This document shows, piece after piece, positions 3 to 22,468 of a stretch of DNA of 64,000 bases; positions within the stretch are counted from its first letter, which is position 1, and the number at the start of each line of letters is the position of its first letter. The notes under the pieces were generated by a model, which saw only the letters and a program-made list of their open reading frames with translations, had not been told where the DNA came from and did no database searches. A program made the position numbers and the translations under genes. This stretch comes from Sulfuricella denitrificans (GTDB lineage: Bacteria > Pseudomonadota > Gammaproteobacteria > Burkholderiales > Sulfuricellaceae), in assembly GCA_002632355.1 (NCBI GenBank), contig NSJJ01000015.1, positions 8,730 through 72,729 of the forward strand, written 5' to 3'.

Positions 3-1460
3 CCCGACATTGCCGCCGCCCGCTACGCTGTACAGCATGGCGAAGAACTGGCCCGCTCGTCCGACAACCTGAGCCGCGCCTTCCAGCGCATGATGGAAGG
101 CAAGCTCGCCACCATCCGCCTCTTCAACCAGATCGCCCTCATTGCCACCGCCTTGCTGACGGCACTGATCGCCCTGCTGGTTTACCGCAAGATCCTGCGC
201 CCGCTCACCCTCACCGTGGACGGATTTTCCCGCGTCGCCAACGGCGATCTGGGTTACCAGGTGCCGCTGGTGGTGGATAACGAGATCGGCCGCATGACGC
301 AGACCTTCAACCGGCTTTCGGAGCGGATGCGCAGCCTGTTTCGCCTTACTGACCGCATTGGCCGGGGCACCAATCTGCACGACGCGCTGAAATTCGTGTG
401 CGAGGAATTTCGCGCTTTCCTGCCGGTGGAGTGGGTCGGCGTGCTGCTGATCACGCCGGATCGGCGCCGGGTCGCGCTGGAGCGACTCTACAGCGAAACC
501 CCCAGCAGCCTGAAAGAAAACGACCTGTTTGAATTTGCACTCGGTGCGCCGGAAGCCGCACTGGCTCAAGGAAAAGCGCTGGCGATCGACGATCTCAACG
601 CTTTTTCCAGCGACAAAAGCCCTGCATTCCTGTCGGCCCGGCTGGCGCACGACGGCAAACGCTCCGCCCTGTTCGTCCCCCTGCGCCACGACAGCGGCAG
701 CGAAGCGCTGCTGGTATTCGCTTCATCGCAGGGCTGCGCCTACACCCCGGAACATGTGGAATTCCTGACTAACCTAGCCGGCCAGATCGGGCACATCCTG
801 GGCAAAACGCTTTTCATGGAAGGACTGGTCGTCGCTGCAGTGGAAGGCCTGGCGAAACTGGCGGAAAGCCGCGATCCGGAAACCGGCGACCACCTGGTGC
901 GCATGAGCCTTTATTCCGCCATCCTCGCCGAAGAACTGGGCAAGGACGAAACTTACCGCGAACGCATCACCCCGGCCTACGTGCGGGATGTTTTCCGCTT
1001 CGCACCCATGCACGACATCGGCAAGGTCGGCATCCGCGACGACATCCTGCTCAAGCCGGGACGCCTTGACCCTGCCGAGCGTACCGAGATGGAACGTCAC
1101 CCGGTGATCGGCGGACAGGTCTTACGCCGCAGCGAGGAGCAGATGAACACCCTCGGCCACAGCATCTTCCAGACCGGGATCGAGATTGCCGAAGGTCACC
1201 ACGAAAAATTCGACGGCAGCGGCTATCCCGCCGGTCTGGCTGGCGAAGCCATCCCCCTCGCGGCGCGCATCATCGCCGTGGCCGACGTGCTGGACGCCCT
1301 CACTTCGAAACGCCCCTACAAGGAAGCGTGGCCAATGGAAAAAGCCCTGGAAACGATCAACAACGATTCCGGCAAGCACTTCGACCCGGCCGTGATCGCC
1401 GCCCTGCACCGTTCATTGCCGCGCGTGCTGGAGATTTACGAGCGCCTGAAGCATGTCTGA
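3..1460 (+). CDS. HAMP-GAF-HD-GYP c-di-GMP phosphodiesterase (5' truncated by window edge)
   Basis: Frame is open from position 3 to the track ORF 90..1460. TM segment (IALIATALLTALIALLVYRKI), HAMP (PL..L..GFSRVANGDLGYQVPLVVDNEIGRMTQTFN), GAF-like region, HD (MHDIGK) and HHEKFDGSGYP ... ADVLDALTSKRPYK motifs. Confidence 0.9.
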   Translation, partial: PDIAAARYAVQHGEELARSSDNLSRAFQRMMEGKLATIRLFNQIALIATALLTALIALLVYRKILRPLTLTVDGFSRVANGDLGYQVPLVVDNEIGRMTQTFNRLSERMRSLFRLTDRIGRGTNLHDALKFVCEEFRAFLPVEWVGVLLITPDRRRVALERLYSETPSSLKENDLFEFALGAPEAALAQGKALAIDDLNAFSSDKSPAFLSARLAHDGKRSALFVPLRHDSGSEALLVFASSQGCAYTPEHVEFLTNLAGQIGHILGKTLFMEGLVVAAVEGLAKLAESRDPETGDHLVRMSLYSAILAEELGKDETYRERITPAYVRDVFRFAPMHDIGKVGIRDDILLKPGRLDPAERTEMERHPVIGGQVLRRSEEQMNTLGHSIFQTGIEIAEGHHEKFDGSGYPAGLAGEAIPLAARIIAVADVLDALTSKRPYKEAWPMEKALETINNDSGKHFDPAVIAALHRSLPRVLEIYERLKHV

Positions 1461-2088: not shown

Positions 2089-3516
2089 TCAATCCTCCAG
2101 CGCGCGCACCTTCACCGCCTTGCCCTTGACCTTGCCTGACGACAACTTGCGCACCGCTTCGCGGGCGATGTTGCGTGCCACGGCCACATAGGTGAATTGA
2201 TCGGTCACGGTGATCTTGCCGACCTGCTCGCGCGTGAAGCCCGCTTCGCCGGTGAGCGCACCCAGCACGTCGCCGGGACGGATCTTGTCCTTGCGCCCGC
2301 CGAGAATCTGCAGCGTCGCCATCGGTGGCAGCAGCGGCGCGCCCTGCTCGCCTTGCAGTTCTCCGATGTCATGCCATTCCGGTTCGCTGCCCGTCATCTG
2401 GGCGATGCCGGCCACCCGGCGCTTGTCGGCATGGCTGCACAGACTCAGCGCCCAGCCGTCCTCATCGGCACGTCCGGTACGGCCGATGCGGTGGATGTAT
2501 ATTTCCGGATCGGGCGTAACGTCGACATTGATGACCACTTCGAGCTGCGCGATATCCAGGCCGCGCGCCGCCACATCAGTCGCCACCAGCACTGAGCAAC
2601 TCTTGTTGGCAAACTGGATCAGCACCTGGTCGCGCTCACGCTGGTCCAGATCACCATTCAGAGTCAACGCATGGAAACCCTGCGCATGCAGCACATCCAG
2701 CAAATCGCGGCACTGCTGCCGGGTATTGCAGAAAGCCAGCGCGCTGACCGGACGATAGTGTCTGAGCAGGATACCCACGGCCTGCAAGCGCTCCTCGTGT
2801 TTCACTTCGTAGAAGCGCTGGCGGATTTTGCTGCCCTCGTGCAGTTCCGGCAGCTTCACTTCCTGCGGATTACGCAGGAAGTGGCGCGCCAGCCGTGCGA
2901 TGCCATCGGGAAAGGTCGCGGAAAACAGCAGCGTCTGGCGCTCTGCCGGACAATGTTCCGCCACGTAAGCGATGTCGTTGTAAAAACCCATGTCCAGCAT
3001 GCGGTCGGCTTCGTCGAGCACCAGGATATTAAGCGCATCCAGCTTCAGGCTATCGCACCCGAGGTGGTCCATGATGCGGCCCGGCGTGCCGACGACGATA
3101 TGCGCGCCATGCTCCAGGCTATTGATCTGCGGGCGCATGGGCGTGCCGCCGCACAGCGTCACGATCTTGATGTTGTCTTCATGACGCGCCAGACGGCGAA
3201 TCTCCTGCGTCACCTGATCGGCCAGCTCGCGCGTCGGGCACAGCACCATGGCCTGCACCGCAAAGCGGCGCGGATTCAGCCGGGTAAGCAAGGGCAGCGC
3301 GAACGCCGCCGTCTTGCCGCTGCCGGTCTTGGCCTGCGCGATCAGGTCTTTTCCGGCAAGCGCCAGCGGCAGGCTGGCCGCCTGAATGGGGGTCATGGTC
3401 AGGTATTCGAGTTGCCGCAGGGTCGCCTGCATGCCGGGCGATAAAGGCAGTTCACTGAAAGCGTGCCCGGCAGCATCCGCTGCAGGAGAGGAAGAAAACG
3501 AGAGAGTATCGGTCAT
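2089..3516 (-). CDS. dbpA: ATP-dependent 23S rRNA DEAD-box helicase DbpA
   Basis: Q motif, AKTGSGKT, PTRELADQ, DEAD, SAT, ARGLD, HRIGRTGRA and the DbpA C-terminal RNA-binding domain (GGRKDKIRPGDVLGAL). Start taken at ATG 3516. Confidence 0.93.
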   Translation of the reverse strand: MTDTLSFSSSPAADAAGHAFSELPLSPGMQATLRQLEYLTMTPIQAASLPLALAGKDLIAQAKTGSGKTAAFALPLLTRLNPRRFAVQAMVLCPTRELADQVTQEIRRLARHEDNIKIVTLCGGTPMRPQINSLEHGAHIVVGTPGRIMDHLGCDSLKLDALNILVLDEADRMLDMGFYNDIAYVAEHCPAERQTLLFSATFPDGIARLARHFLRNPQEVKLPELHEGSKIRQRFYEVKHEERLQAVGILLRHYRPVSALAFCNTRQQCRDLLDVLHAQGFHALTLNGDLDQRERDQVLIQFANKSCSVLVATDVAARGLDIAQLEVVINVDVTPDPEIYIHRIGRTGRADEDGWALSLCSHADKRRVAGIAQMTGSEPEWHDIGELQGEQGAPLLPPMATLQILGGRKDKIRPGDVLGALTGEAGFTREQVGKITVTDQFTYVAVARNIAREAVRKLSSGKVKGKAVKVRALED

Positions 3517-3743
3517 GCGCAATTATCCGCGATTGAGCCAAAATGTGCCGGTAAATATATGGGGCGGAAGCGACAAGGCCAGAAATGTTCACAGAAATCC
3601 TCTTTGGATCATTTCCAAAACATGCTGATACCAATTTGCCTGGGTTATACTTTTCCTGAGCGCACGCTATTGAAGCGCGGGTTGGTGCCTGCAAGCCAAT
3701 AATTTGTTTAGTTATATTTTCCATATTCCACTATTCCCCAAGA

Positions 3744-4454
3744 ATGAAATCTAACGAAATCCAGGCACATGCAAAGCAGGAGGACGCCACGTCAAGGCTG
3801 GGACGGGTTCTTGTTGTTGACGATGCATCGATTACCCGGGAAATACTCAGAAACCATCTGGAGGGTACGACCGAGATCATTGACGAGGCCGCAGATGGCT
3901 TACAGGCTCTGGAGCGTTTCCAGCAGTTTCGCTACGATGCAATTCTGCTCGATATCGAGATGCCGGGGATGGATGGTTATGACACCCTGCGCGCCATGCG
4001 GGGCTGGGAACGGGAACACACTTTACTTCCCACATTTATTCTGGCGATCACATCCAGCGATTTCCCCGAGGACGAGCAACACATTCTGGAAGCAGGCGCG
4101 TCTGCCTACCTGGAAAAACCTGTCAGAAAACAGAAACTCATGGCAGCACTTGGCATCGACCAGCCCATGCCCGCCAAACCTCATCCCATGGAAAACCTGT
4201 TACCGCAGTTGATTGCCTACGCCGAAAACCTGTTGAATGAGATTGAAACGGAAAACTTCAATGACACCAGCCGGGTTTCAAAGAAATTTCACGAACTGCG
4301 GGGTTCCCTGGCCACCTTCGGCTTTCAGGATCTTGCGGAGAAATCGAGACAGATGCAGTTTATGGCGCAACAGGGAAACAAGCCCACCCAGCTGATGTTC
4401 GAAATGTTCAGGCACGATCTGCGGCTTTCGTCCACAAATCTCCCGCTGAAATGA
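3744..4454 (+). CDS. Response regulator receiver + Hpt domain protein
   Basis: REC motifs VLVVDD, LLDIEMPGMDGY, AIT and EKP; C-terminal Hpt-like helix FHELRGSLATFG. Stop overlaps the exbD start (ATGA). Confidence 0.8.
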   Translation: MKSNEIQAHAKQEDATSRLGRVLVVDDASITREILRNHLEGTTEIIDEAADGLQALERFQQFRYDAILLDIEMPGMDGYDTLRAMRGWEREHTLLPTFILAITSSDFPEDEQHILEAGASAYLEKPVRKQKLMAALGIDQPMPAKPHPMENLLPQLIAYAENLLNEIETENFNDTSRVSKKFHELRGSLATFGFQDLAEKSRQMQFMAQQGNKPTQLMFEMFRHDLRLSSTNLPLK

Positions 4455-4867
4455 GACGATGGCACGAAGAAAAGAAACCCAGGGCGCGCATCGAAATCAT
4501 CCCGATGATCGATGTCATGATGTTCCTGCTCGTGTTTTTTGTTCTGATCAGCATCAATGTAATCCCTGCCTTCAACATCAAAACCCGCCTGCCTTCGTCC
4601 TCAAGTGCGGAGAAGACGCTGGAACAACACAATACCGTTGTATCGCTGGGTCAGAATAGCGAACTGCAACTGGACGGCACACATCTGGGCCTGGATGAAC
4701 TGACCCCTCGCCTGGCTGCGATCAGGCTGCGCGACCCCCAGGTCTCGGTGATTATCCATGGCGACCGGGCCGTCCAGCTGCAACGCATCATAGATGTAAT
4801 GGACCGGGTCAAGTCGGCAGGTTTCCCGGCGCTTTCGATTGCCGTCAAGAAAAGCGGAAACCCGTGA
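4451..4867 (+). CDS. exbD: Biopolymer transport protein ExbD/TolR
   Basis: IEIIPMIDVMMFLLVFF transmembrane motif with the conserved Asp; C-terminal IHGDRAV..Q.IIDVMD..K.AG. Confidence 0.92.
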   Translation: MRRWHEEKKPRARIEIIPMIDVMMFLLVFFVLISINVIPAFNIKTRLPSSSSAEKTLEQHNTVVSLGQNSELQLDGTHLGLDELTPRLAAIRLRDPQVSVIIHGDRAVQLQRIIDVMDRVKSAGFPALSIAVKKSGNP

Positions 4868-5568
4868 CCGAGTTCCTGTTCCGCTTCCGAGAGACAATCT
4901 CGGCCGCCAACGCGACGGCGCTGGTGGCGTTGCTCCTGGTGCTGTTCGGTCCCTTCACGATGCCGCCCAATCCATCCGCCCTCAGTCCGGCTCCCATCGA
5001 AGTCATCCTGGCCACACCAGAAATAGAAGCCTCACCTGACACTCCCCCGCCACAACCAGTAGCAAAAAAAGATCATGTAATGTCCCGTAAGCCAGCCCAA
5101 ACGCATCTTTCGCCTCTGATGCCCGAACATCCACTGCCGATGCCCGACAACACCGCAAGCCCTGCCCTCGCAGAACCGACCCCGCTGCCCGCACCTGCGG
5201 CCGCTCCTGAGACAATACTTGCCCCCCAGGCCCCTCCCCCACCGCGCAATCCGGCAAAGGATGTGGAAGCACTCTACGTTGCCAGGGTGCGCGCGCATAT
5301 CCAGAGCATAAAGCACTACCCGACAGGACGGGAAGCCAGCCTGCAGCGCCCCAGGGGAACTGCCGTTGTCTGGTTTACGCTGCGTCGCAGTGGCGAACTG
5401 GCAGAAGCCGGCGTGGAAAAACCATCGGGTTCGATGCTGCTGGACAGCGCGGCCCTGTCCACCGTTCGCCGCGGCATATACCCGCCTTTCCCCGACAACG
5501 TATGGACAGGCAAAACACAACAACGCTTCTCGGTCGAACTCGATTTCATTCCCTATAATCCATCCTAG
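4864..5568 (+). CDS. tonB: Energy transducer TonB family protein
   Basis: N-terminal hydrophobic anchor, Pro-rich spacer, TonB C-terminal domain (YPTGREA..QRPRGTAVVWFTLRRSG...SSG..LLD.AAL..VR). GTG start overlaps the exbD stop. Confidence 0.85.
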   Translation: MTEFLFRFRETISAANATALVALLLVLFGPFTMPPNPSALSPAPIEVILATPEIEASPDTPPPQPVAKKDHVMSRKPAQTHLSPLMPEHPLPMPDNTASPALAEPTPLPAPAAAPETILAPQAPPPPRNPAKDVEALYVARVRAHIQSIKHYPTGREASLQRPRGTAVVWFTLRRSGELAEAGVEKPSGSMLLDSAALSTVRRGIYPPFPDNVWTGKTQQRFSVELDFIPYNPS

Positions 5569-5580
5569 TGGAGACATCTC

Positions 5581-7920
5581 ATGCAGTTATTCCCAAAATC
5601 CATCGCACTCGTCATCAGCATCCTGTACTCGACGGGTGCGATAGCTGAAGATACCGCTGCTCTTGGCCGTATTCAGGTGGAAGGAGATGCTCCCGGCAGC
5701 GGCTGGATGGTGCAGGAAGAAACACCCAAGGCCCGCAGCTCGATCACGCGTGCCGCCATCGAACAGAACAGCCCGCTGAACAATCCCTTTCAGGCCAGCA
5801 ATCTGCTGCCGGGCATCAATGCCTACAGCTACGATGCCACAGGGCTGTTCGGTGGCGGAATGCGCATGCGGGGTTTCAACAGCGACCAGATCGGCGTTAC
5901 CGTCGATGGTGTCCCGGTAAACGATGCGGGAAACTTCGCTGTCTATGCACCTGAACTCATCGATCTCGAGAACCTGGATGAAATCTTTGTTACCCAGGGC
6001 TCCACAGACACCGACGCACCCCATGTAGGCTCCGTGGGTGGCAATATCGGCATGGTGACATCCAGCCCGACAGACGAGCACCGCTTCCGCGTCCAGCAAA
6101 GCTTCGGCTCCAACAATGCACGCAAGACCTTCCTCCGCGCAGATACCGGATATCTCGGTGATAACCGCTTCAAGGCCTTCATTTCCTACTCCAAGGCGGA
6201 AGCCGACAAATGGAAGGGCTCCGGCGCAGCTGACCGGGAACATGTGGATTTCAAGGGCGTGCTCAACCTTTCCCCTGGCAACAGCATCACTGCCGGCCTG
6301 CTGTGGAACAAGATGCTCAACAACAACCTGCGTTCCCTCACCCTGGCCGAGATAGATACGCTGGGTCGCAATGCCGACTTCGGCACTACGCCGCCCCGGC
6401 ACCTGGCAGGCGTCAACGGCACGGCGCAGATTGAAAGAGGCCCCTCCGATCTTTACTACAACCTCAATCTCAACCCTTTCAAGAACTACATTGCCACCCT
6501 CAAGGGCAACTTCCAGCTGACGCCGGACCTGCACCTGGATGTGGAGCCATACTACTGGTACGGCTATGGCACCGGCGGCAACGAACTGAGAACCGTATCC
6601 GAGAGCAATACGCAAGCCAGGCTCGGGGGCGGCATACGCGACATCAATCTGGATGGCGATACGCTGGATACGGTAATGATCTACAGTGGCGCAATCACCA
6701 AAACCCATCGGCCCGGCATCACCGTCCGCCTGAGCACACAGGTGGATAACCACAAACTGATGGCCGGCTACTGGTACGAGCATGCCAGACATAGCAGAAG
6801 CCAGCCTGCCGTAAATTTCGACGCCACCGGGAATACCGTGGACCCCTGGCTGGAAAACCCGTCGCAATACCTGCTGCGTCAGGACGGATCAGCCTACCAG
6901 GGCCGCGACTTCCTCACCATCAACACCGCCAGATCACTTTTCCTGCAGGACAGCATTGGACTCATGAACGACAAGCTCAACGTGCAACTGGGCCTTCGCC
7001 ACACCGGGATCAACCGCGACTTCACCAACTACGCCAGCGAAGGGGGCGTTGCAACCTACAACATCCAGAAGGATTACGCCAAGACCCTGCCCAGTCTCGG
7101 GGTCCGCTACCAGCTTGCTCCCGAGCAACAGGCATTCTTCAACCTGGCGGAAAACTTCCGTGCGCCGCCCGACTCCGTCTTCTACGGCCTGATCAATGGC
7201 GGCACCTTCAGCAACGGCGTGCTGACCGGGTACACCCTGCGGCCTGTGAACGTCGCTCCCGAAACAGCTACGAACCTGGATATCGGCTACCGTTATGCCG
7301 GCAAAGCGCTCACCTTCTCGGGCTCCCTGTTCCATGTTGACTACCGCGACAGAATTGCTTCCGCCTACGACCCGGTCAATGGGACGAACACCAACTACAA
7401 TGTCGGCGACTCCACAACCCGTGGATTCGAGCTTGAATCTTCCTGGCGCTTCCAGGCAAAATGGAGTCTCTATGCCTCGCTCACATACACTCGCAGCCGT
7501 ATCGGTCAGGATCTGCAAACCGCGGCGAACAGTTATGAAGCCACCGCAGGCAAGCAGTTCCCGGATGTACCCAACTGGATGGCCGGCCTCGCGCTGCAAT
7601 ATCGCAGTGGCCCCTGGTCAGGCAGCCTCTCCGCGAAATATACCGGTCAGCGCTATTCAACCCTGGTCAACGACGAATCTGTCGGCGGGTTCACACTGGT
7701 CAATTTCGACGCAGCCTGTCGCCTGCCCTCCACCAACCTGTTCCGCAATCCCCTGGTGCGCCTGAATGTGTACAATCTGCTCAATACCGACTACCTTTAC
7801 CTGAATGCGGGCAGCGGCGCCAGCTTCACCGCCAGGGCAGTGGGCGCCGGAGGAAGCTCACCCTACTATTATGTCGGGGCGCCACGCACACTAAGCATCA
7901 TGCTGGCATCGGATTTCTGA
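5581..7920 (+). CDS. TonB-dependent outer-membrane receptor, ligand unknown
   Basis: Signal peptide, TonB-box-like RIQVEG, plug domain (NLLPGIN...MRGF..DQIGVTVDGVPVND), barrel C-terminus NVYNLLNTDY ... GAPRTL and terminal Phe. Confidence 0.93.
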   Translation: MQLFPKSIALVISILYSTGAIAEDTAALGRIQVEGDAPGSGWMVQEETPKARSSITRAAIEQNSPLNNPFQASNLLPGINAYSYDATGLFGGGMRMRGFNSDQIGVTVDGVPVNDAGNFAVYAPELIDLENLDEIFVTQGSTDTDAPHVGSVGGNIGMVTSSPTDEHRFRVQQSFGSNNARKTFLRADTGYLGDNRFKAFISYSKAEADKWKGSGAADREHVDFKGVLNLSPGNSITAGLLWNKMLNNNLRSLTLAEIDTLGRNADFGTTPPRHLAGVNGTAQIERGPSDLYYNLNLNPFKNYIATLKGNFQLTPDLHLDVEPYYWYGYGTGGNELRTVSESNTQARLGGGIRDINLDGDTLDTVMIYSGAITKTHRPGITVRLSTQVDNHKLMAGYWYEHARHSRSQPAVNFDATGNTVDPWLENPSQYLLRQDGSAYQGRDFLTINTARSLFLQDSIGLMNDKLNVQLGLRHTGINRDFTNYASEGGVATYNIQKDYAKTLPSLGVRYQLAPEQQAFFNLAENFRAPPDSVFYGLINGGTFSNGVLTGYTLRPVNVAPETATNLDIGYRYAGKALTFSGSLFHVDYRDRIASAYDPVNGTNTNYNVGDSTTRGFELESSWRFQAKWSLYASLTYTRSRIGQDLQTAANSYEATAGKQFPDVPNWMAGLALQYRSGPWSGSLSAKYTGQRYSTLVNDESVGGFTLVNFDAACRLPSTNLFRNPLVRLNVYNLLNTDYLYLNAGSGASFTARAVGAGGSSPYYYVGAPRTLSIMLASDF

Positions 7921-7954
7921 AGCAGAACCACGGACGCGCAAAGAAGGGATACAT

Positions 7955-8596
7955 TTGAACTACCAACTCCTCCATGAGATAACGTTCTACGTGATGTACG
8001 GGGTTGTCGGCCTGGCCACGTTTGTTATCGGCGAACGCCTGATCTTCTTTATGGTCACATTGCGCCAGAGCCGATCCCTCGAATCCCTGCTGATCTCCGC
8101 AGGCGACGACGCCTCAAAGGTCGCCGGGCAGTTCGAAAACAGCCAGAGCGTGCCTGCAGAGGCTTTTCGCCGCATGCTCAGCCTGCGTCACCGGATGATT
8201 TCCAGGCACGATCAGGAGGATATTTCAGAGGCGATCTATCTCGCCCTCAAGGCCAAACTGCGACGCCGCCTGTGGATGCTCGACACAGCGGTCACTGCGG
8301 CGCCTTTGCTGGGCCTGCTGGGCACCATTTTCGGCATAACCGAAACCTTCACCAGCCTCGCACAGACAGGCATATCAGATCCAGCAGGCGTTTCCGCAGG
8401 TATCGGCACAGCACTATTTGCCACCGCGCTGGGCATTGCCATTGCCCTCTATGGCCTGTTTTTTTTCAACCTTTTCCAGTCGCAGGTGGAGCGGATCAGC
8501 GAGCATCTGCGCATCATCATTCTCCATGCAGGCCTGGGCCTCGAAGGGATCAGCGGAGGGGAAAAAACATCCGGTGCGGAGCATCCCCATGCATAG
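7955..8596 (+). CDS. exbB: MotA/TolQ/ExbB proton channel protein
   Basis: AAPLLGLLGTIFGI..TF and AGIGTALFATALGIAIA helices; TTG start. Confidence 0.9.
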   Translation: MNYQLLHEITFYVMYGVVGLATFVIGERLIFFMVTLRQSRSLESLLISAGDDASKVAGQFENSQSVPAEAFRRMLSLRHRMISRHDQEDISEAIYLALKAKLRRRLWMLDTAVTAAPLLGLLGTIFGITETFTSLAQTGISDPAGVSAGIGTALFATALGIAIALYGLFFFNLFQSQVERISEHLRIIILHAGLGLEGISGGEKTSGAEHPHA

Positions 8597-8608
8597 GGCG
8601 CCTGCGCC

Positions 8609-11600
8609 ATGCACATAGGGAACATTCGTCCCCTGTCATATTGCGCCAAGCTTCTCTCCTGGCTTGAACTTTTTGCTTTTCTTTTCCTGGCGACATGCCT
8701 GCCTTCCGCCCTGGCTGCGCCTGCCCATAGTCTGAGATTCGAGCACCTGGGCGCCCTTCCGGCAGAAAACCGCACGATTGTGTCGATGCTCCAGGACAAA
8801 CAGGGATTCATGTGGATAGGCACAACAGATGGACTATACCGTTTCGACGGGTACCGTTCGGTGGTTTTCCGGGTCATCCAGGGTGATGCCCGCAGCCTTC
8901 CGGACAATTACATAACCTCATTGCTGGAGGATGAGCATGGCACGATCTGGGTCGGCACGATAAGCGGACTTGCCCGTTTTGATCCCGAGACAAACAATTT
9001 CAGCCATTTCAAGCCCCGCTTGGCCGGGAACAAGAACGACAGCAACTACATCAGAAAAATCATCAGCGATGGCCGTGGCGGCATGTGGCTGGGAACAAGG
9101 GGGGGGCTGCTGCATTTCGACCCCAGGACTGGGCGTTTCCAGATTTTTCGCCACGACGATGCCCGGCCAGACAGCCTGAAAAACAATAACGTATCCGCTC
9201 TTGCGACCGACGCCAAGGGAGGGCTCTGGGTCGGTACCTGGCCAGGAGGGCTTTGCTATCTGCCGCAGGGCGCATCCGGCTTCAAACATTACACGCTTGA
9301 TGCACCTGTTCCAGCCGGATCTATCAGGAACAATCCAGTCAGGGAACTGTTTGTGGACCATGGGCAAAAATTGTGGATAGGAACTGAAATCGGAGCGGTC
9401 GTTTGGCAAACCGGGGCTGACTGGTCCAAAAGGAGGCCCCTCGCCGCCGAAACCGGCCTGAACACCTACCGGGTCAACCAGATTTACGAGGACCGGGAAG
9501 GAACGGTCTGGATCGCCACCATCGGCTCCGGCCTGTTGTCATGGAACGCCAAACAACAGCAATTGGACAGGTACACTCACCAGCATGAGGACAGTTACAG
9601 TCTTTCGAGCGATCAGATCTCCTCGGTTTTTCAGGATCGTTCCGGCACATTCTGGGTCAGCACCCTGGACCAGGGTATTGACCGGGCCGACCTGTCCAGC
9701 AAGGGTTTTGAACGTATTATTCCTCGTGCACTGGCCACAGGAAATTCAAGAATCAGCAACATTATCTCCGTCATTACTCCAGGCACAGCAGGTCGTCTGT
9801 GGGTTGGGGGATCAGACGGTATTTTTCTTCTGGATTTTGCAAGCCGCAAAGTCATCACCAGCGTCCAGCACCTTCCCCAGCAACACGGCTCTTTCTGGGT
9901 ATATGACGCATTTCAGGAAGCAGACGGAACTCTCTGGATCGGCACACAGTTCGGGCTATACCGGCTTGACCGTCCCGGAGGCAAACTTCACGCAATACAT
10001 TTCGGCGACCCTGCAAGCGAATATGTAAATCGCATCCTCCCGGGGAAAGACGGCTTGCTCTGGCTTGGCACCGGCGGGGGGCTGATCCGCTACAACTCCA
10101 GGACTGGCGCCATCAGAAAATATACCCATGACCCCGCAGACCCCGGCAGCCGAGCCACCAATTCCACCACCGTCATTCTGGAAGACCGTGCTGGCCGGTT
10201 ATGGATGGGCGGGTGGTACGCAGGAGGGGGCCTGGATGTCCTTGATCCCGCCACCGGAAAATTTATCCATCACAGCCATGATCCCAGAAATCCTGCCAGT
10301 CTCAGCAATGACTTCATCACCTGCCTCTACGAAGATGAAAAAGCAAATATATGGATATGCACCCAGGATGGCCTCAATCTGGCCACGCCATCGGGTGAAG
10401 GAAAATGGAAATTTCGTGCCTTCACGACAAAGGACGGGCTGGGATCCAACACCATCTCCGCAATCCAGGCAGACAATACAGGAAAACTCTGGATCAGCAC
10501 CAATGCAGGGATCTCATGTCTTGAGCCAGCAACGGGGAAAATCGAAAACCATGCCGTATCAGACGGGATAACGGATGGCATCTTCTATTACAGATCGTCC
10601 CTGCGCTTACCCGACGGAACACTCTATTTTGGAAGCTATAACGGCATCACGGCGGTTCATCCTGAAGCGGTCCAAAGCAATCAGTTTGTGCCTGATGTTG
10701 TCATTAGCGACATCAGCGTTTTCAACAGTTCGCTCATGGGTGCGGAACGCAGCGAAGACGTCAGGCTGGAGGGAACGGTGACAAGCCCCCGATCCCTGAC
10801 CCTGTCATGGGATCAGTCCATGTTCGCTCTGGAGATCGCCGCTCTGCATTTTTCCGATCCCGGTCGCAACCGATACGCTTACCGCCTGGAAGGCTTCGAC
10901 AAAGATTGGGTGATGGCTGATGCCAGCCACCGGCAGGTCACTTACACCAACCTGGATCCGGGCAACTATGTTTTCCGCGCCAGGGCTGCGAGCAAGAATG
11001 GGGTGTGGAACGAGTCTGGTGTCACCTTGCCAATCACTATCACCCCCCCATTCTGGCAAACATGGTGGTTCCGCATTTTGATGGGGCTCATACTGCTCGG
11101 CCTGCTGGCCGCAGCTTACCGCTGGCGACTCCGGAAATTCGCACTCAACGCCTTGCATCTTGAGCAACTGGTTGAGGAACGCTCCGCCGAACTGATCCAG
11201 ATGCGCGACAAGGCGCTGTCGGCAAACCGTGCCAAGAGCGAGTTCCTGGCCAACATGAGCCACGAAATCCGTACGCCCATGAATGCCATTCTGGGCATGG
11301 TGCAACTGGCCCTGCATACCGAGCTCACGCCCAAACAACTCAACTACCTCAAAAAGGTCGACAGCGCTGCAAAATGGCTGCTTGGCATCATCAACGACAT
11401 CCTCGATTTTTCCAAGATCGAAGCCAGAAAGCTGGAGCTGGAACAAGTCAGCTTCCGCCTCGATGATGTCATGGAGCACCTTGCCGACATGACAATGCTG
11501 AAAGCAGAAACCAGGGGACTTGAACTCGTTATCGAAAGGGCAGCAGATGTTCCGGATTCGCTGGTCGGCGACCCTTTGCGTCTGGAACAGATATTGATCA

Positions 11601-13969
11601 ACCTCGTCAACAATGCCATCAAGTTTACTGAAAAGGGCAGGATATCCGTCAACGTGCGGCGGATTCCTGATGACCACGGCGAAGTGCGCCTCCAGTTCAA
11701 TGTTGCCGATACCGGCATCGGGATGACCGATGAACAGCGTGGCCGCCTCTTCACCCCCTTCAGCCAGGCGGACAGTTCTACCACGAGGCAATTTGGCGGC
11801 ACAGGGCTGGGCCTTTCCATATGCAAGCATCTGGTCGAAATAATGGGAGGTGAGATCGGGGTCGAGAGCAGACCCGGAGAGGGAAGTACCTTCTTTTTCT
11901 CTGCCCGCTTTGGTGCCTGGAATAATGGAGAAAATGAGGAGAAATGCGATGCTGCCGCTTCAGGAAAACAGGACTGGAAAAACCTGGCCAAATCACTTGC
12001 CGGGGCCAGGATTCTTCTTGTTGAAGACAATGTCGTTAACCGGGAACTGATGCTGGAAATTCTCAACAACGCGGGCATTCGTGCCGATGCTGCCTGCAAT
12101 GGCGCAGAAGCCGTGGAGAGAGTCGGCCTGGAGAGATACGATGCCGTGTTCATGGATTGCCAGATGCCGCTAATGGATGGCTTTGAAGCAACGCGACTTA
12201 TACGTTCCGACGAACGTTTCCATGAACTGCCCATCATAGCGCTTACCGCAAATGCAACACATGAAGCACGTGAGCAATGTATCGCATCCGGCATGAACGA
12301 CCATGTTTTCAAGCCGGTTCATGTCGCCGAGTTATTTTCAACGCTGGTTCGCTGGGTTCACCCTCATTCTCGCCACGAAAGCCAGGATGCACCAACTGAA
12401 GTCAGTCAGAATGAAAGCACCATTCCATACCCGGCTGGTGTAAACATTCAGGAGGCCATGGACATCGTCGACGGGAATGTGAGCCTGTATAAAAAATTGC
12501 TGCGTTTATTCCGCGATGAATATTCTGATATTTTTAATCGTATCGCTGCGGCGTATGAAGCGGACGATTTCGAAGACGCATCCAGATTGACGCACACTCT
12601 GAAAGGCGAGGCGGGAAACATCGGCGCAGAAGACCTGGCCAGGAAGGCAAGGGAACTTGAATCGGCGCTCCGGCAACAGCAAACGGAACATGTTGCGCCC
12701 TTGCTGGAAAGTGTAAGGGAAGCTGTCGTCTCCCTTATCGCCGGAATCGACCGGACCCTGGAACAAGGCCCGGTCGAGGTCAAGACGCCTCCTCCACAAG
12801 ACGGTAACGATGCGGATATAAGCGAACTTCTGCCGCAGATACGTGAACTTGCCAAGTTACTGGCAGAGTACGATGCCGACACGCTTGATCATATTTCTTA
12901 CCTGAAAGAAAATCTGCATGGCCGTTCCATGGAAAAGGATTTCATCGATTTTTTCACGAAAGCAACCCGATATGATTTCAGCGGCGCTCTCTCCTCCCTG
13001 AGCGAACTCTCTGTCAAACTCGGCCTGCCATTAGCCACTGAGAATGCAATTGCTATAGCAACGCCTGAAAGCAGGCACACGATTCTGGTGATGGATGACT
13101 CGCCGTCAAATATCGATCTGTTGCAAGAAGCCCTCAGAACGGATTACCGTCTGCAGATTTCAATTAATGGCGAAACCGCGCTCCGCATTGCCAATTTCCG
13201 AAACAAGCCGGACCTAATCCTGCTGGACGTTACGATGCCTGGATTAAGTGGTTACGAGGTTTGCCAGAGACTCAAGGAAAACCCTGAAACACAGAATATT
13301 CCAGTAATTTTCGTGACCGCTCTTTGCAGCGCTGCCGAAGAAGAGCTTGGATTGAAACTGGGCGCCGTGGATTACATTACCAAGCCCATCAGCCCGCCTA
13401 TTGTCCGGGCCAGGGTAAAAAATCACATTGCGCTCAAATTAAAAGAGAAACTGCTGGAATCACAGGCACTGCTGGACCCACTGACCAACATCCCGAACCG
13501 CCGTCGTTTCGATCAGGCACTGGATACTGAATGGAAGCGCAGCGTCCGCACAGGCGCCCCTCTGGCTGTGATTATGCTGGACGTGGACAATTTCAAGACA
13601 TACAACGATGGATATGGGCATGGCGCAGGAGACACCTGTTTATGCAAAGTTGCTGAAACGCTGGCGACCGAAACAATTTCCAGATCCTCTGATCTTATAG
13701 CACGTTATGGGGGTGAAGAATTTATCGTCTTGCTTCCGGATACCGACCTGAACGGCGCCAGACTGCTGGCAGATAGACTTTGCAGCAGCATCGAGGCGTT
13801 GCATATTCCTCACCAATATTCCTCTGCTGCTCCCTGGGTCACGATTAGCTGTGGATATGTTTCCATGACCCCGGAAGAGCATGAGATGGCTGGAGAACTC
13901 ATTGAAAAGGCGGACCAGATGCTCTACAAGGCAAAGACATCCGGGCGCAATCGCACTCATGGTCCATAA
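8609..13969 (+). CDS. Hybrid sensor: two-component regulator propeller repeats, Y_Y_Y, TM, HisKA, HATPase, REC, Hpt, REC, GGDEF diguanylate cyclase
   Basis: About 14 (E/Q)D..G.(L/I)W.GT..GL repeats; [12 protein letters not shown]...[11 protein letters not shown]; [11 protein letters not shown]; H-box [15 protein letters not shown]; N, G1, F and G2 boxes; REC (FMDCQMP); Hpt ([12 protein letters not shown]); REC (LLDVTMP); RSSD I-site plus RYGGEEF. Confidence 0.93.
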
Positions 13970-18957: not shown

Positions 18958-19992
18958 ATGGCGAGCGCGGAACAAATAAAAGCACTACTTAGGTCACACA
19001 TTGAGGGTGACGAGGGGCGCTTTTTGTCTATTGCCATGCAGGTTGCCGCGCATGAAGCCAAGCTGGGGCATGGAAAACTGGCCGAAGAACTACGGGACAT
19101 GATCGATGCCGCAAAGTCTCGCAGCCAGAAACCGGCTGGAGGCAGTAAGCTGGCTCCGCTCAACAAGCCTCGTGGCGAATTGGTTGGTCTGCTTAGCGTT
19201 TCTTATCCCCAGACTCGCCTTGCCGAAATGATTCTCGACGATACCGTGTCCATGAAGCTCAAGCGCACGATCAAGGAGCAGCGCTTTTTCGCCAAGCTTA
19301 AGGAACATGGATTGTCGCCACGCCGCAAGCTCCTCTTTGTAGGTCCGCCGGGCACCGGTAAGACGATGACTGCAGCAGCGCTTGCGGGGGAGTTGGGTGT
19401 TCCGCTATTTCTGGTTCGTCTCGATGCGCTAATCACGAAATTTATGGGAGAGACTGCGGCCAAGTTGCGGCAGGTTTTTGATGCCATTACCGAAGTGCGA
19501 GGCATTTATTTTTTCGATGAGTTCGACGCTATCGGTTCGCAGCGAGGTATGTCCAACGATGTGGGTGAAATCCGTCGTGTGCTCAATAGCTTTCTGCAAA
19601 TGATCGAGCAGGATCAGTCTCACAGCGTGATTATTGCCGCGACCAACCACCCAGATATTCTCGACTACGCACTGTTCCGCCGCTTCGATGACATGCTCCA
19701 GTATGGCCTGCCCAATCAAGAGCAAATCGTTGCAATACTTAAGGCGAGACTAGCAGGATTCCATGCCAAGCGTTTTGCCTGGAGCAAAATTGCAGAACAC
19801 GCGGTGGGATTAAGCCATGCGGAAATTTCAAGGGCGGCCGACGAGGCGATCAAAGATAGCATCATCCACGACCGCGACACCCTTTCTCAAGCCGATCTGG
19901 TGCGCATGCTGGAAGAACGAAAGTTGATCAGCGGTAAGCTCGCCAACAACGATAGCGAGCCATCAAGCCATGACGAATCAAGCGCAAGATAA
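18958..19992 (+). CDS. AAA+ ATPase, IetA-like partner of S8 protease
   Basis: Walker A GPPGTGKT, Walker B IYFFDEFD, sensor IIAATN, arginine finger FRRFD; overlaps the downstream protease gene by 23 nt. Confidence 0.9.
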   Translation: MASAEQIKALLRSHIEGDEGRFLSIAMQVAAHEAKLGHGKLAEELRDMIDAAKSRSQKPAGGSKLAPLNKPRGELVGLLSVSYPQTRLAEMILDDTVSMKLKRTIKEQRFFAKLKEHGLSPRRKLLFVGPPGTGKTMTAAALAGELGVPLFLVRLDALITKFMGETAAKLRQVFDAITEVRGIYFFDEFDAIGSQRGMSNDVGEIRRVLNSFLQMIEQDQSHSVIIAATNHPDILDYALFRRFDDMLQYGLPNQEQIVAILKARLAGFHAKRFAWSKIAEHAVGLSHAEISRAADEAIKDSIIHDRDTLSQADLVRMLEERKLISGKLANNDSEPSSHDESSAR

Positions 19993-22468
19993 TCGACCGC
20001 ACTTCGTTCTCACAAATACTTCCGAAGCAAAACCTTTCACTGCCTATGGTGGTGGGAGCCAACCACATGTGCCGGAATTGCCACGCGCCCAGCATGGCGC
20101 ATCCCTGCAAACACAAATCCAAACACTCAAGCCAATTGCCGAGCAGGCTGCAGTCGCACAGCACGTTATAGGGCTAGAGGGCGGTATCGGCCTGCAAATT
20201 CAGTTTCAAAGTCAGCCCGGTGTGGCGCTGGCATTTGAGAGTCTCGCCAACGAAACGCAGCACATTGAGTTACTGAGCATCCGACATGAAGGGGAATATA
20301 CCTACGCCAACGTCTTCGTACCCGACGGAAAACTTGAGCATTTCGAAAAGTATGTGACCGAGTATTTGGCAGAGAGAAAAGACAAGAATGACAAGCCGCT
20401 GGATCACAGGGCGCTGCTGGATACTATCGAGACAATACGCGCAGCCGAACTTCGCGCACTGTGGACGGATGACCCGGCGCTGCTTCCGCGAAACCGGGAT
20501 GAGTCATTCTGGTGGGAGGTGTGGTTACCCGAACGCGGAAATCGTGAGCTAGTGGTGGAGGATTTCCGCAAGCTGGCTTCTGCGGTTGGCTGCTCCGTTA
20601 GCGAAAGACGTGTCGACTTTCCGGAGCGAACAGTCGTGATGATGCATGGCTCCGAACGCCAATTTTCCCAGACAGCAATGACGCTTAATTGTGTCGCTGA
20701 GCTACGGCGCGCCAAGGAAACGGCAGAGTTGTTTGACGGAATGGATGCCACGGAGCAACAGGCGTGGAAGGACGAGTTGCTAGCGCGAACAACCTTCCCG
20801 GCTCACCCGGACGATGTGCCCCGAGTCTGCTTGATCGATAGTGGCGTAAATCGTGGTCACCCCCTGCTCTCGCCTGCATTGACCAGCGCTGACATGCACA
20901 CCGTCGAACAGGAATGGGGTAAAAATGACGAGTGCAATCACGGCACAGGCTTGGCCGGCATAGCCGTCTATGGCGACTTAACCGATGCGCTTGCAACGGC
21001 GATGCCCATTCAAATTGATCACCTGCTTGAGTCAGTTAAGCTCACACGGGGCGAGAGAGATAATTCCGGAAACAACGAATTTCATGCCAACCTGTTTGCG
21101 AAAGCAGTAAGCCGTCCCGAGATCGCTGCACCACAACGCATGCGCGTATTCAGCTCGGCGGTGACGGCTACAGATTACCGTGATCGTGGTCGCCCTTCTT
21201 CATGGTCTGCTATGGTGGACTCGCTGGCGGCTGATGTGCCGGGGGGAGGACTTTTCCCTCGACTGATCGTTCAAGCTGCTGGGAATACCAAAGATGGTAG
21301 CGAGTGGCTGGATTATCCAGAAAGTCTTTCGACAAAAAATCTAATTCACGACCCCGGTCAAGCTTGGAATGCACTGACAGTTGGTGCATTCACCGAAAAA
21401 GTTGAAACCGAAAATGGCCAAATTGAACCTATTGCGCCTTTTGGAGGAATCAGTCCGTACACAACGACATCAGCAACTTGGGATAGGGCATGGCCGCTGA
21501 AACCTGACGTTGTTCTTGAAGGCGGGAACGTTGGGAAAAATGATGGGTTCGCAGGGATGTTACCGAGTCTTAGTCTTTTGACCACTCACTTCAAGCCTAC
21601 CGAAAAACTTTTCACCACCACTAACGCCACCAGCGCCGCATCCGCCTTGTGTTCCCGCATGGCGGCGCAATTGATGGCGGCATATCCACAACTTAGGCCA
21701 GAAACTATTCGTGCGCTCATAGTTCATTCCTCTGAGTGGACCGAAGCTATGCGCAAAATGTATTTGCCAGAGGAGAGATCCCACAACAAGAACGATTACG
21801 CCAACCTTATCCGGCATTGCGGCTGGGGAGTGCCTGATCTGGAAAGAGCATTATGGAGTGCTGCCAATTCGCTGACACTGATTGTCGAAGACATCGTTCA
21901 CCCATACAAAAAAGACGGGAGCACGATCAAGACTCGAGATATGAATCTGCATGCACTGCCTTGGCCCCAAGACGAGCTGGAAGCGCTCGGCGCAACCCAA
22001 GTACAAATGAGAGTCACACTCTCCTATTTCATCGAGCCAAATCCATCCGCTCGCGGCTCAGCATCGAAATACCATTACCCTTCCCACCGCTTACGATTCG
22101 ATGTGCGCCATCACCTTGAATCGGAAGAGGACTTCCTTGCACGAATCAACGCCGCTGCTGCACTTGAGGAAGAAGATAATCAACACGCGAACCCCAAAGA
22201 CCCCGATTGGCGCTTGGGCGAACGTCGACGGCATAGAGGTTCACTACATCAGGATATATGGGAAGGCTCTGCGGCAGACTTGGCCAGTCGAGGCTGTCTT
22301 GCGGTCTATCCCTCATTGGGCTGGTGGCGCACTCGCCCAAAACTAGGCCGTTACAACCTGCCGGCCCACTACACTCTGATCGTCTCCATTCGTGCACCAG
22401 AAACGGAAATTGATCTTTATAGTGCAATCGCAGCAAAAATACAGACCCCGGTTATTATTCCAGCTTGA
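19970..22468 (+). CDS. S8 subtilisin-like serine protease, IetS/Y4bN-like
   Basis: Catalytic Asp (RVCLIDSGV), His (NHGTGLAG), oxyanion Asn (QAAGN), Ser (NATSAASA); KPDVVLEGGN and GWGVPDLERAL family motifs. Confidence 0.9.
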   Translation: MTNQAQDNRPHFVLTNTSEAKPFTAYGGGSQPHVPELPRAQHGASLQTQIQTLKPIAEQAAVAQHVIGLEGGIGLQIQFQSQPGVALAFESLANETQHIELLSIRHEGEYTYANVFVPDGKLEHFEKYVTEYLAERKDKNDKPLDHRALLDTIETIRAAELRALWTDDPALLPRNRDESFWWEVWLPERGNRELVVEDFRKLASAVGCSVSERRVDFPERTVVMMHGSERQFSQTAMTLNCVAELRRAKETAELFDGMDATEQQAWKDELLARTTFPAHPDDVPRVCLIDSGVNRGHPLLSPALTSADMHTVEQEWGKNDECNHGTGLAGIAVYGDLTDALATAMPIQIDHLLESVKLTRGERDNSGNNEFHANLFAKAVSRPEIAAPQRMRVFSSAVTATDYRDRGRPSSWSAMVDSLAADVPGGGLFPRLIVQAAGNTKDGSEWLDYPESLSTKNLIHDPGQAWNALTVGAFTEKVETENGQIEPIAPFGGISPYTTTSATWDRAWPLKPDVVLEGGNVGKNDGFAGMLPSLSLLTTHFKPTEKLFTTTNATSAASALCSRMAAQLMAAYPQLRPETIRALIVHSSEWTEAMRKMYLPEERSHNKNDYANLIRHCGWGVPDLERALWSAANSLTLIVEDIVHPYKKDGSTIKTRDMNLHALPWPQDELEALGATQVQMRVTLSYFIEPNPSARGSASKYHYPSHRLRFDVRHHLESEEDFLARINAAAALEEEDNQHANPKDPDWRLGERRRHRGSLHQDIWEGSAADLASRGCLAVYPSLGWWRTRPKLGRYNLPAHYTLIVSIRAPETEIDLYSAIAAKIQTPVIIPA

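Follow-up and report, generated by a model that had tools for sequence, protein, structure and literature searches.

A TonB-dependent receptor clade paired with a propeller sensor kinase in Proteobacteria, a candidate import-and-sense module with c-di-GMP output in Sulfuricella denitrificans

Analysis of a 64,000-nt stretch of Sulfuricella denitrificans DNA (the window; GCA_002632355.1, contig NSJJ01000015.1, positions 8,730-72,729 of the forward strand), combined with comparisons across related and unrelated genomes, showed that a TonB-dependent receptor (TBDR) and a large sensor kinase with a periplasmic double propeller are encoded as a pair that is conserved in several proteobacterial lineages. 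In the window the pair belongs to a putative operon of six + strand genes at 3744-13969, encoding a protein with receiver (REC) and histidine phosphotransfer (Hpt) domains, ExbD, TonB, the TBDR, ExbB, and the sensor kinase, which carries a C-terminal diguanylate cyclase. We lean, with moderate confidence, towards a module that imports a compound and then senses it, with cyclic di-GMP (c-di-GMP) as its output and with an ancestry in organophosphate scavenging. The open reading frames, their 4-nt overlaps and their gaps of 12-34 nt lie exactly where a preliminary description of this DNA had placed six co-oriented, tightly joined genes:

3744..4454, +, REC-Hpt protein, 236 aa, predicted stand-alone phosphorelay intermediate (Response_reg E = 5e-25; Hpt 22.8 bits)
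4451..4867, +, ExbD, 138 aa (PF02472 E = 1e-27; one N-terminal transmembrane segment, 12-45)
4864..5568, +, TonB paralogue, 234 aa (TonB_C, PF03544, 33.6 bits, above cut-off; transmembrane segment 10-35, then a Pro-rich linker)
5581..7920, +, TBDR, 779 aa (Pfam Plug and TonB_dep_Rec_b-barrel, above cut-offs)
7955..8596, +, ExbB, 213 aa (MotA_ExbB, PF01618, E = 8e-27; three transmembrane segments)
8609..13969, +, sensor kinase-diguanylate cyclase, 1786 aa (Pfam Reg_prop, Y_Y_Y, HisKA, HATPase_c, two Response_reg, Hpt and GGDEF)

The pairing was followed outward from the TBDR. When 41 related genomes were searched, all six genes in the same layout turned up in one further species of the genus (81% identity) and in a different genus of the same family (73%). 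A search in which each prokaryotic species was represented by one genome yielded 16 loci, in which all receptors of at least 58% identity have a propeller kinase downstream; the kinase-linked sources were Sulfuricella and other Sulfuricellaceae, Gallionella and other Gallionellaceae, a Rhodocyclaceae metagenome-assembled genome (MAG), a Burkholderiales MAG, and Methylobacter and other Methylococcaceae. Re-reading the Gallionella and Methylobacter loci with Pfam annotation gave the same pairing, as did six further loci from Pfam look-ups of contigs (Methylobacter tundripaludum, Methylomonas sp. LL1, two Rhodocyclaceae-like contigs, and another Methylococcales contig). The preliminary description had set beforehand, as an outcome that would refute it, that homologous receptors hardly ever lie beside propeller kinases. 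The opposite was observed: the kinase is found downstream, directly or after exbB, in 19 of the 19 TBDRs of at least 57% identity with readable downstream DNA (the window, L024, L015, L014, L013, L016, L025, L020, L018, L017, L019, L021, L022, L027, L029, L030, L032, L033, and L034). A twentieth pair emerged with the sensor as the starting point, since the Rhodocyclus tenuis sensor (P0191), chosen as an outgroup, sits directly after a TBDR. Kinase-linked receptors thus occur in Sulfuricellaceae, Gallionellaceae, Rhodocyclaceae, and Methylococcales, in at least eight flanking contexts, and the flanks vary by lineage (a type I secretion adhesin locus, nqr genes, a dctP/dctQM TRAP transporter, aconitase and fumarase genes, or a multicopper oxidase). 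Because the arrangement recurs in related and unrelated genomes, it is more than chance adjacency.

The two proteins also vary together. Pairwise identities among TBDRs and among their adjacent sensors are strongly correlated (Mantel r = 0.86, 0 of 5000 permutations as high), with the sensor evolving faster (mean identity 46% versus 65% for the receptor). Sensor genes are present in 5 of 40 Sulfuricellaceae genomes; the clade TBDR was shown in four of those five, the fifth (G042) being fragmentary and the TBDR not having been searched there. Betaproteobacterial loci usually have exbD-tonB before the receptor and exbB after it, and the Methylococcales and Rhodocyclaceae loci consist of the pair only, the exbBD-tonB genes being absent alongside. 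The conserved core is the TBDR and the sensor, and ExbBD-TonB, REC-Hpt, and the fused cyclase are lineage-specific additions. A single system of importer, phosphorelay, and cyclase, as first proposed, therefore holds for its receptor-sensor pair but not for the TonB set in those two groups, and the REC-Hpt protein is part of it in Sulfuricellaceae alone.

Individual loci carry variations of their own. In a Sulfuricella MAG (L014 11148-20447, the same locus as L038 831-11735), two propeller kinases follow exbB in tandem; their sensors are about 50% identical to that of the window and are both followed by REC and GGDEF regions, which looks like a duplicated sensor behind a single receptor. In Methylobacter tundripaludum (L029 1-9829), and at this locus only, the DNA directly upstream of the pair holds a type I secretion locus, which encodes a giant adhesin with RTX/HCBP repeats (more than 3580 aa) together with an ABC exporter and a TolC-like protein; adhesins of this type are often under c-di-GMP control. 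The TBDR of this species is P0023, and the kinase beside it has 1638 aa. In two Rhodocyclaceae-like contigs and in Rhodocyclus tenuis (L032, L033, and L066), the pair lies between dctP and convergent dctQ-dctM genes of a TRAP transporter, adjoined by a histidine-phosphatase-family gene; in that lineage the TRAP transporter could be an inner-membrane route for the same ligand.

The nearest relatives of the kinase-linked receptors may point to a class of substrate. A sister clade, defined as TBDRs 36-56% identical and sampled at 17 loci, has no propeller kinase beside any of its 17 receptors. A phosphoesterase gene instead adjoins the TBDR or exbB in 15 of the 17 loci, downstream in the slot of the kinase in 14 and upstream of exbD in one (L026). 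The enzyme is either a Metallophos plus 5_nucleotid_C protein (of the 5'-nucleotidase/UshA/CpdB family, not SoxB) or a PhoD-like phosphatase, and a frequent order is exbD-tonB-TBDR-exbB-enzyme. Such clusters were collected from Burkholderiales (L011, L026, L028, L031, L035, and L042-L051), and an even sample of 401 genomes of the order contributed 10 of the 17 loci (10 genomes with a sister-clade TBDR), nine of them with an adjoining enzyme gene; the kinase-linked clade was represented there by the window's own genome only. Some sister loci have further phosphorus genes nearby (alkaline phosphatase, NUDIX, CYTH-CHAD, and polyphosphate kinase). Judged from this gene content, the sister cluster is a probable dedicated system for scavenging organophosphates or phosphorus; a literature search found no experimental paper on the Burkholderiales exbD-tonB-TBDR-exbB-phosphoesterase cluster. 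At one sister locus (L031 14410-15630, - strand), a group II intron reverse transcriptase gene (RVT_1 and GIIM) stands right after the 5'-nucleotidase gene.

Among 27 receptors placed in a tree, those linked to phosphoesterases group as a single clade (SH-aLRT 100) apart from the kinase-linked ones, and the neighbour label changes the minimum possible number of times, splitting the tree on a single branch. The Methylococcales receptors branch from among betaproteobacterial receptors in this tree, which suggests transfer of the pair between orders. Genomes with only the sister TBDR had no propeller sensor in four of the five checked, and the window has no 5'-nucleotidase or PhoD homologue detectable by tblastn, the kinase occupying that slot. 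The evidence is read most simply if phosphoesters are the substrates that this receptor family handles and if, in one lineage, a periplasmic hydrolase gave way to a periplasmic sensor. We hypothesize that the kinase-linked receptors kept the ligand class of their sisters; an organophosphate or nucleotide-like ligand should be taken as a lead only. That the operon holds no catabolic genes had been noted from the start, correctly, and the phosphoesterase in the kinase slot of the sister clade gives that absence added weight.

These comparisons bear on whether receptor and sensor might be mere neighbours, a TBDR for an ordinary nutrient or metal, together with its TonB set, and an envelope sensor unrelated to it, inherited and transferred as a block. 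The functional links are all inferred, and since many loci belong to related lineages with shared habitats, a few block transfers could explain much of the synteny. Nevertheless, the pair persists in at least eight flanking contexts while exbB is gained or lost between its members and accessory genes turn over completely, the presence of a kinase next door divides the TBDR tree on one branch, and genomes with the sister TBDR alone mostly lack the sensor. We therefore regard simple co-residence as very unlikely.

The receptor itself is of the standard transporter type. Its predicted structure (AlphaFold2 pLDDT 87, pTM 0.85) is a plug within a 22-strand barrel, and a signal peptide and a C-terminal Phe are visible in the sequence. 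LGRIQVEG, a TonB-box-like stretch with a weak match to the consensus, follows the predicted signal peptide. No Pfam match to an N-terminal signalling (STN) domain was found, and the plug starts at residue 45, straight after the TonB-box region. The TBDR has no PDB sequence match at 1e-5 and scores below all NCBIfam substrate-specific cut-offs. The nearest folds are FecA, FhuA, and PqqU/YncD (14-19% identity, target-normalised TM-scores of 0.74-0.84 in a fold search). Naming a substrate from solved structures was considered and rejected, because at this level of identity the matches are generic siderophore, citrate, and PQQ (pyrroloquinoline quinone) transporters.

Such a receptor could in principle signal by contact, a surface ligand and TonB action altering its periplasmic face and the propeller reading the change through protein contact, so that neither import nor binding by the kinase would be necessary. 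The tight co-inheritance and distance co-variation of the two proteins are as expected of physical partners, betaproteobacterial loci keep a dedicated TonB system alongside the pair, and the scheme resembles TonB-dependent transducers of the FecA-FecR type. Against these points stand a TBDR whose TonB-box region runs directly into the plug with no STN extension, a sensor fold known for binding small ligands, and a sister clade in which the same slot holds a soluble periplasmic enzyme, an arrangement that requires an imported substrate. On balance, contact signalling appears unlikely to us.

The periplasmic part of the sensor kinase, a double propeller plus Y_Y_Y domain of about 775 residues (approximately 40-815), is held between transmembrane segments 12-39 and 818-841 and contains 14 Reg_prop repeats spaced 42-50 aa apart. 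It matches PDB 4a2l (BT4663) at E = 1e-100, and also 3v9f and 3ott, which makes it clearly homologous to the periplasmic domain with which Bacteroides hybrid two-component systems (HTCS) bind their ligand. HisKA/HATPase, REC1, Hpt, REC2, and GGDEF domains follow in that order. All the predicted phosphorelay residues are present (H885 in SHEIRTP, D1183, H1329 in HTLKG, and D1540), as are the N box and G boxes, and the cyclase (GGDEF E = 2e-50) has a GGEEF active site at 1701-1705 with an RSSD I-site five residues upstream; the catalytic residues of the 1786-aa protein are thus all intact. In NCBIfam comparisons, the HisKA-REC-Hpt core resembles BarA (498 bits) and TorS (392 bits), below their equivalog cut-offs, and the REC-GGDEF tail resembles PleD (314 bits). 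The BT4663 homology and the intact GGEEF motif support the originally suggested combination of HTCS-like sensing with c-di-GMP output in this protein.

Across the clade the output is less uniform. A GGDEF domain is fused to 8 of 16 complete kinases and absent from the other 8, so that the proposed c-di-GMP output is fused in about half of them. The Sulfuricellaceae kinases have the order histidine kinase (HK)-REC-Hpt-REC-GGDEF and most Methylobacter kinases HK-REC-(Hpt)-REC-GGDEF; Methylomonas-like and Gallionella kinases end as HK-REC or HK-REC-Hpt, and the Rhodocyclaceae loci have a different kinase core. In Gallionella sp. (L039 7651-8616), genes for a PilZ protein and a cNMP-binding protein stand immediately ahead of exbD-tonB-TBDR-exbB-kinase, at the place where Sulfuricellaceae have REC-Hpt; this PilZ gene beside a kinase without GGDEF is a second, independent tie to c-di-GMP.

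A reading in the reverse direction would have the kinase sensing some other periplasmic or envelope cue and its output, either c-di-GMP or a regulator reached through REC-Hpt, controlling the expression or activity of the uptake system, the TBDR being target and not input. Regulators are commonly encoded beside genes under their control, kinases of the clade without GGDEF must signal to unlinked partners, and the REC-Hpt gene offers a route to an unlinked DNA-binding regulator. However, genes for DNA-binding proteins or c-di-GMP receptors are missing from the conserved core, the TBDR and kinase remain paired where they are the only two genes of the locus, and co-variation of a receptor with an extracytoplasmic sensor is unexpected for a purely transcriptional link. 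We consider this reversal improbable.

In the REC-Hpt protein, residues D70 and K125 of the receiver are present, and the Hpt domain scores 1.8 bits short of the Pfam cut-off (22.8 versus 24.6 bits). The Hpt assignment is supported by H183, invariant in the HxLRG motif (here HELRG) across four orthologues, and by the AlphaFold2 model, in which a REC fold is followed by a four-helix bundle at 149-231 (pLDDT about 80-88); a fold search with the whole chain was uninformative on the Hpt part, as receiver domains dominated the matches. REC-Hpt orthologues were found in Sulfuricellaceae loci only. ExbB, ExbD, and TonB are all present above the cut-offs of PF01618, PF02472, and PF03544. In an NCBIfam search none of the six operon proteins was assigned to a named equivalog, and the three motor proteins are divergent paralogues, as all score below the equivalog cut-offs. 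The operon copy is the most divergent of four TonB_C genes in the genome, and since three other TonB_C genes and eight other TBDR barrels lie outside the operon, the TonB set here is a dedicated paralogue. The TTG start of exbB is supported by orthologues that align from residue 1.

Taken together, we favour the following import-then-sense sequence. In this genome the TBDR, powered by its own ExbB-ExbD-TonB, would bring a specific extracellular compound into the periplasm, probably one too large or too scarce for entry through porins. The double-propeller/Y_Y_Y domain would bind it, by analogy with Bacteroides HTCS, in which the periplasmic domain binds the oligosaccharide product imported by the neighbouring TonB-dependent transporter; it is this analogy, together with the synteny, that leads us to prefer import followed by periplasmic binding. 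Binding would switch the kinase on, phosphate would pass from H885 to D1183, H1329, and D1540, and phosphorylated REC2 would activate the GGEEF cyclase in the manner of PleD and WspR, raising c-di-GMP. The separate REC-Hpt protein may serve as a side branch or phosphate sink able to pass the signal to other regulators. The module would have derived from, or share a common ancestor with, the exbD-tonB-TBDR-exbB-phosphoesterase cluster, the enzyme slot now holding the sensor.

Several observations weigh against this interpretation. The synteny counts are not phylogenetically independent, and the fold search with the TBDR yields generic relatives only. Orphan propeller-kinase paralogues with no neighbouring TBDR occur in two genomes (G001 and G041), both of which also have a linked pair, and an Undibacterium sensor that is 42% identical likewise has no TBDR neighbour; on these grounds the idea that all close sensor homologues are TBDR-linked was rejected. 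With 8 of 16 complete kinases having no GGDEF domain, c-di-GMP is not the universal output of the module. Sensors of this fold are known to bind glycans, not phosphoesters. Finally, a scan for Pho boxes gives no clear separation of the two clades: the best match upstream of the operon is 10/14, on the - strand, and sister loci reach 11-12/14 in about a third of cases, in a scan that discriminates poorly. The two orphan kinases (L036 8125-12360 in G001 and L037 8378-12565 in G041) are about 1400 aa long and have HK-REC-Hpt but no GGDEF; one adjoins parE/parC and a phage-type integrase gene, the other an RND efflux pump and an HDOD protein gene.

It is conceivable, if rather doubtful, that an uptake system has here been turned into a sense organ. 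The receptor would still import the class of compound that its phosphoesterase-linked sisters handle (extracellular nucleotides, nucleic-acid fragments, or other organophosphates), and the propellers would read the compound unhydrolysed in the periplasm, converting it into a c-di-GMP signal. If true, attachment or matrix production in these chemolithotrophs and methanotrophs would depend on "tasting" nucleotide or organophosphate outside the cell, such as the DNA set free in a biofilm, and the system would provide both the first ligand other than a glycan for this type of sensor and the first case in which an input to c-di-GMP signalling is gated by TonB.

The six genes are likely co-transcribed, a proposal based on their tight spacing. 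Reading of the junctions showed an ATGA overlap between the REC-Hpt gene and exbD (4451-4454) and a GTGA overlap between exbD and tonB (4864-4867). Gaps of 12 nt (tonB-TBDR, with a GGAGA ribosome-binding site ahead of the TBDR gene), 34 nt (TBDR-exbB, with AAGAAGGGA ahead of exbB), and 12 nt (exbB-kinase gene) follow, and the ribosome-binding sites in all three are purine-rich. Terminator-like sites within the cluster are at chance level (11 seen versus 11.9 expected); promoter-like matches in the scanned region number 1 versus 6.5 expected, and the sole match is on the - strand inside the kinase gene. The flanks of the operon are as follows:

3523..3743, +, upstream intergenic region, presumed promoter and leader (221 nt between the divergent dbpA-like gene and the REC-Hpt gene)
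2089-3522, -, dbpA-like gene (DbpA-type helicase), upstream flank, divergent from the operon
Downstream flank, -, U32 peptidase gene

A scan of the 3523-3743 region found no sigma-70 consensus upstream of the operon. A riboswitch or structured leader was rejected, as neither the operon region nor the leader matches an Rfam family or riboswitch and the leader shows no structure beyond that of shuffled sequence (folding z = +2.0). Recent transfer was likewise rejected as far as a G+C anomaly is concerned: the cluster has 55.4% G+C versus 55.6% for the rest of the window, and only the immediate flanks are richer. An empty-site comparison across 13 genomes of the genus took the U32 peptidase gene as its anchor; what lies beside this gene varied and dbpA was not within reach, so that no clean insertion site could be demonstrated. 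A HAMP-GAF-HD-GYP gene at window 3-1460 (+), which runs off the window start, encodes a probable c-di-GMP phosphodiesterase (HD at 337, HHE at 399, and GYP at 407 of the translated fragment). It lies 2.3 kb upstream of the operon, with a YgjP-like peptidase gene and dbpA in between; its nearness may be chance, as the module occupies other contexts in other genomes. Further along, at window 18958-22468 (+), Pfam identifies an AAA ATPase gene (344 aa) overlapping a subtilase gene (832 aa).

Periplasmic sensors see only what crosses the outer membrane, and for most c-di-GMP enzymes we know of no input signal. The conserved pairing of one specific TBDR clade with one clade of sensors identifies a concrete gate through which such a signal could pass, and the search for the ligand is narrowed by the pairing of the sister receptors with phosphoesterases. 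It extends the logic of Bacteroidota polysaccharide loci, in which a transporter feeds a sensor, to Proteobacteria and to a second-messenger output. As the pair is present in cultured Methylobacter tundripaludum, Methylomonas sp. LL1, and Rhodocyclus tenuis, these proposals are directly testable.

The closest known counterparts are the Bacteroidota HTCS represented by BT4663, which share with the operon kinase a homologous sensor of two 7-bladed propellers plus Y_Y_Y between two transmembrane segments, the fusion of kinase and receiver in one polypeptide, and a gene position beside a TonB-dependent transporter thought to deliver the ligand. They differ in that the present host is proteobacterial and the kinase ends in Hpt-REC-GGDEF, with no helix-turn-helix domain found and no AraC-type output, and in that the cluster has its own ExbBD-TonB set. 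Unlike the SusC/SusD loci of Bacteroidota, it has a classical 779-aa TBDR and no SusD-like or carbohydrate-active enzyme gene among the six genes or the flanks. The sister cluster has the same TBDR family (36-56%), gene order, and dedicated TonB set as the operon, with a hydrolase in last place instead of the sensor kinase; its conceptual counterpart is the phosphate (Pi)-induced PUS clusters of Flavobacterium, which combine a TonB-dependent transporter with a phosphoesterase (PMC8115612).

Sensors of the same periplasmic type govern c-di-GMP metabolism elsewhere. LchP of Lysobacter enzymogenes (PMC6182147) and GdpX2/3 of Xanthomonas oryzae (PMC6637768) are Reg_prop/Y_Y_Y c-di-GMP enzymes, and Oxalobacteraceae have many [quoted passage not shown] of about 1030 aa. 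In all of these GGDEF or GGDEF-EAL follows the sensor in direct fusion, without the kinase relay that the operon kinase has, and a linked TBDR is unreported for LchP (PMC6182147) and GdpX2/3 (PMC6637768). The FecA-FecR-FecI transducers resemble the proposed module in using a TBDR as the entry point of a signal and in depending on TonB; unlike FecA, the operon TBDR has no signalling domain, and the operon has no anti-sigma or extracytoplasmic function (ECF) sigma factor gene. The NCBIfam trio of TBDR, YfiR-like protein, and kinase (NF053590-NF053592) is also a conserved TBDR-histidine kinase cassette, but the operon TBDR scores 38.9 bits against the NF053590 cut-off of 645, and the operon lacks a YfiR-like gene and has a different sensor domain. 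The multistep core of the kinase is like those of the unorthodox kinases ArcB, BarA, and TorS, and its REC-GGDEF tail is like PleD and WspR; what sets it apart is that both parts lie in one 1786-aa polypeptide behind an HTCS-type sensor. Our literature search found no description of a layout of receptor, TonB system, propeller kinase, and cyclase, in agreement with the preliminary description, which likewise named no known example. The architecture of a propeller/Y_Y_Y sensor on a c-di-GMP enzyme had been described before (LchP, PMC6182147). Two points are new: in the sister clade a phosphoesterase stands in the slot of the sensor, and a specific proteobacterial TBDR clade is conserved and inherited together with a sensor kinase of the HTCS type, which in this operon is accompanied by a TonB motor of its own and has a full relay leading to a diguanylate cyclase.

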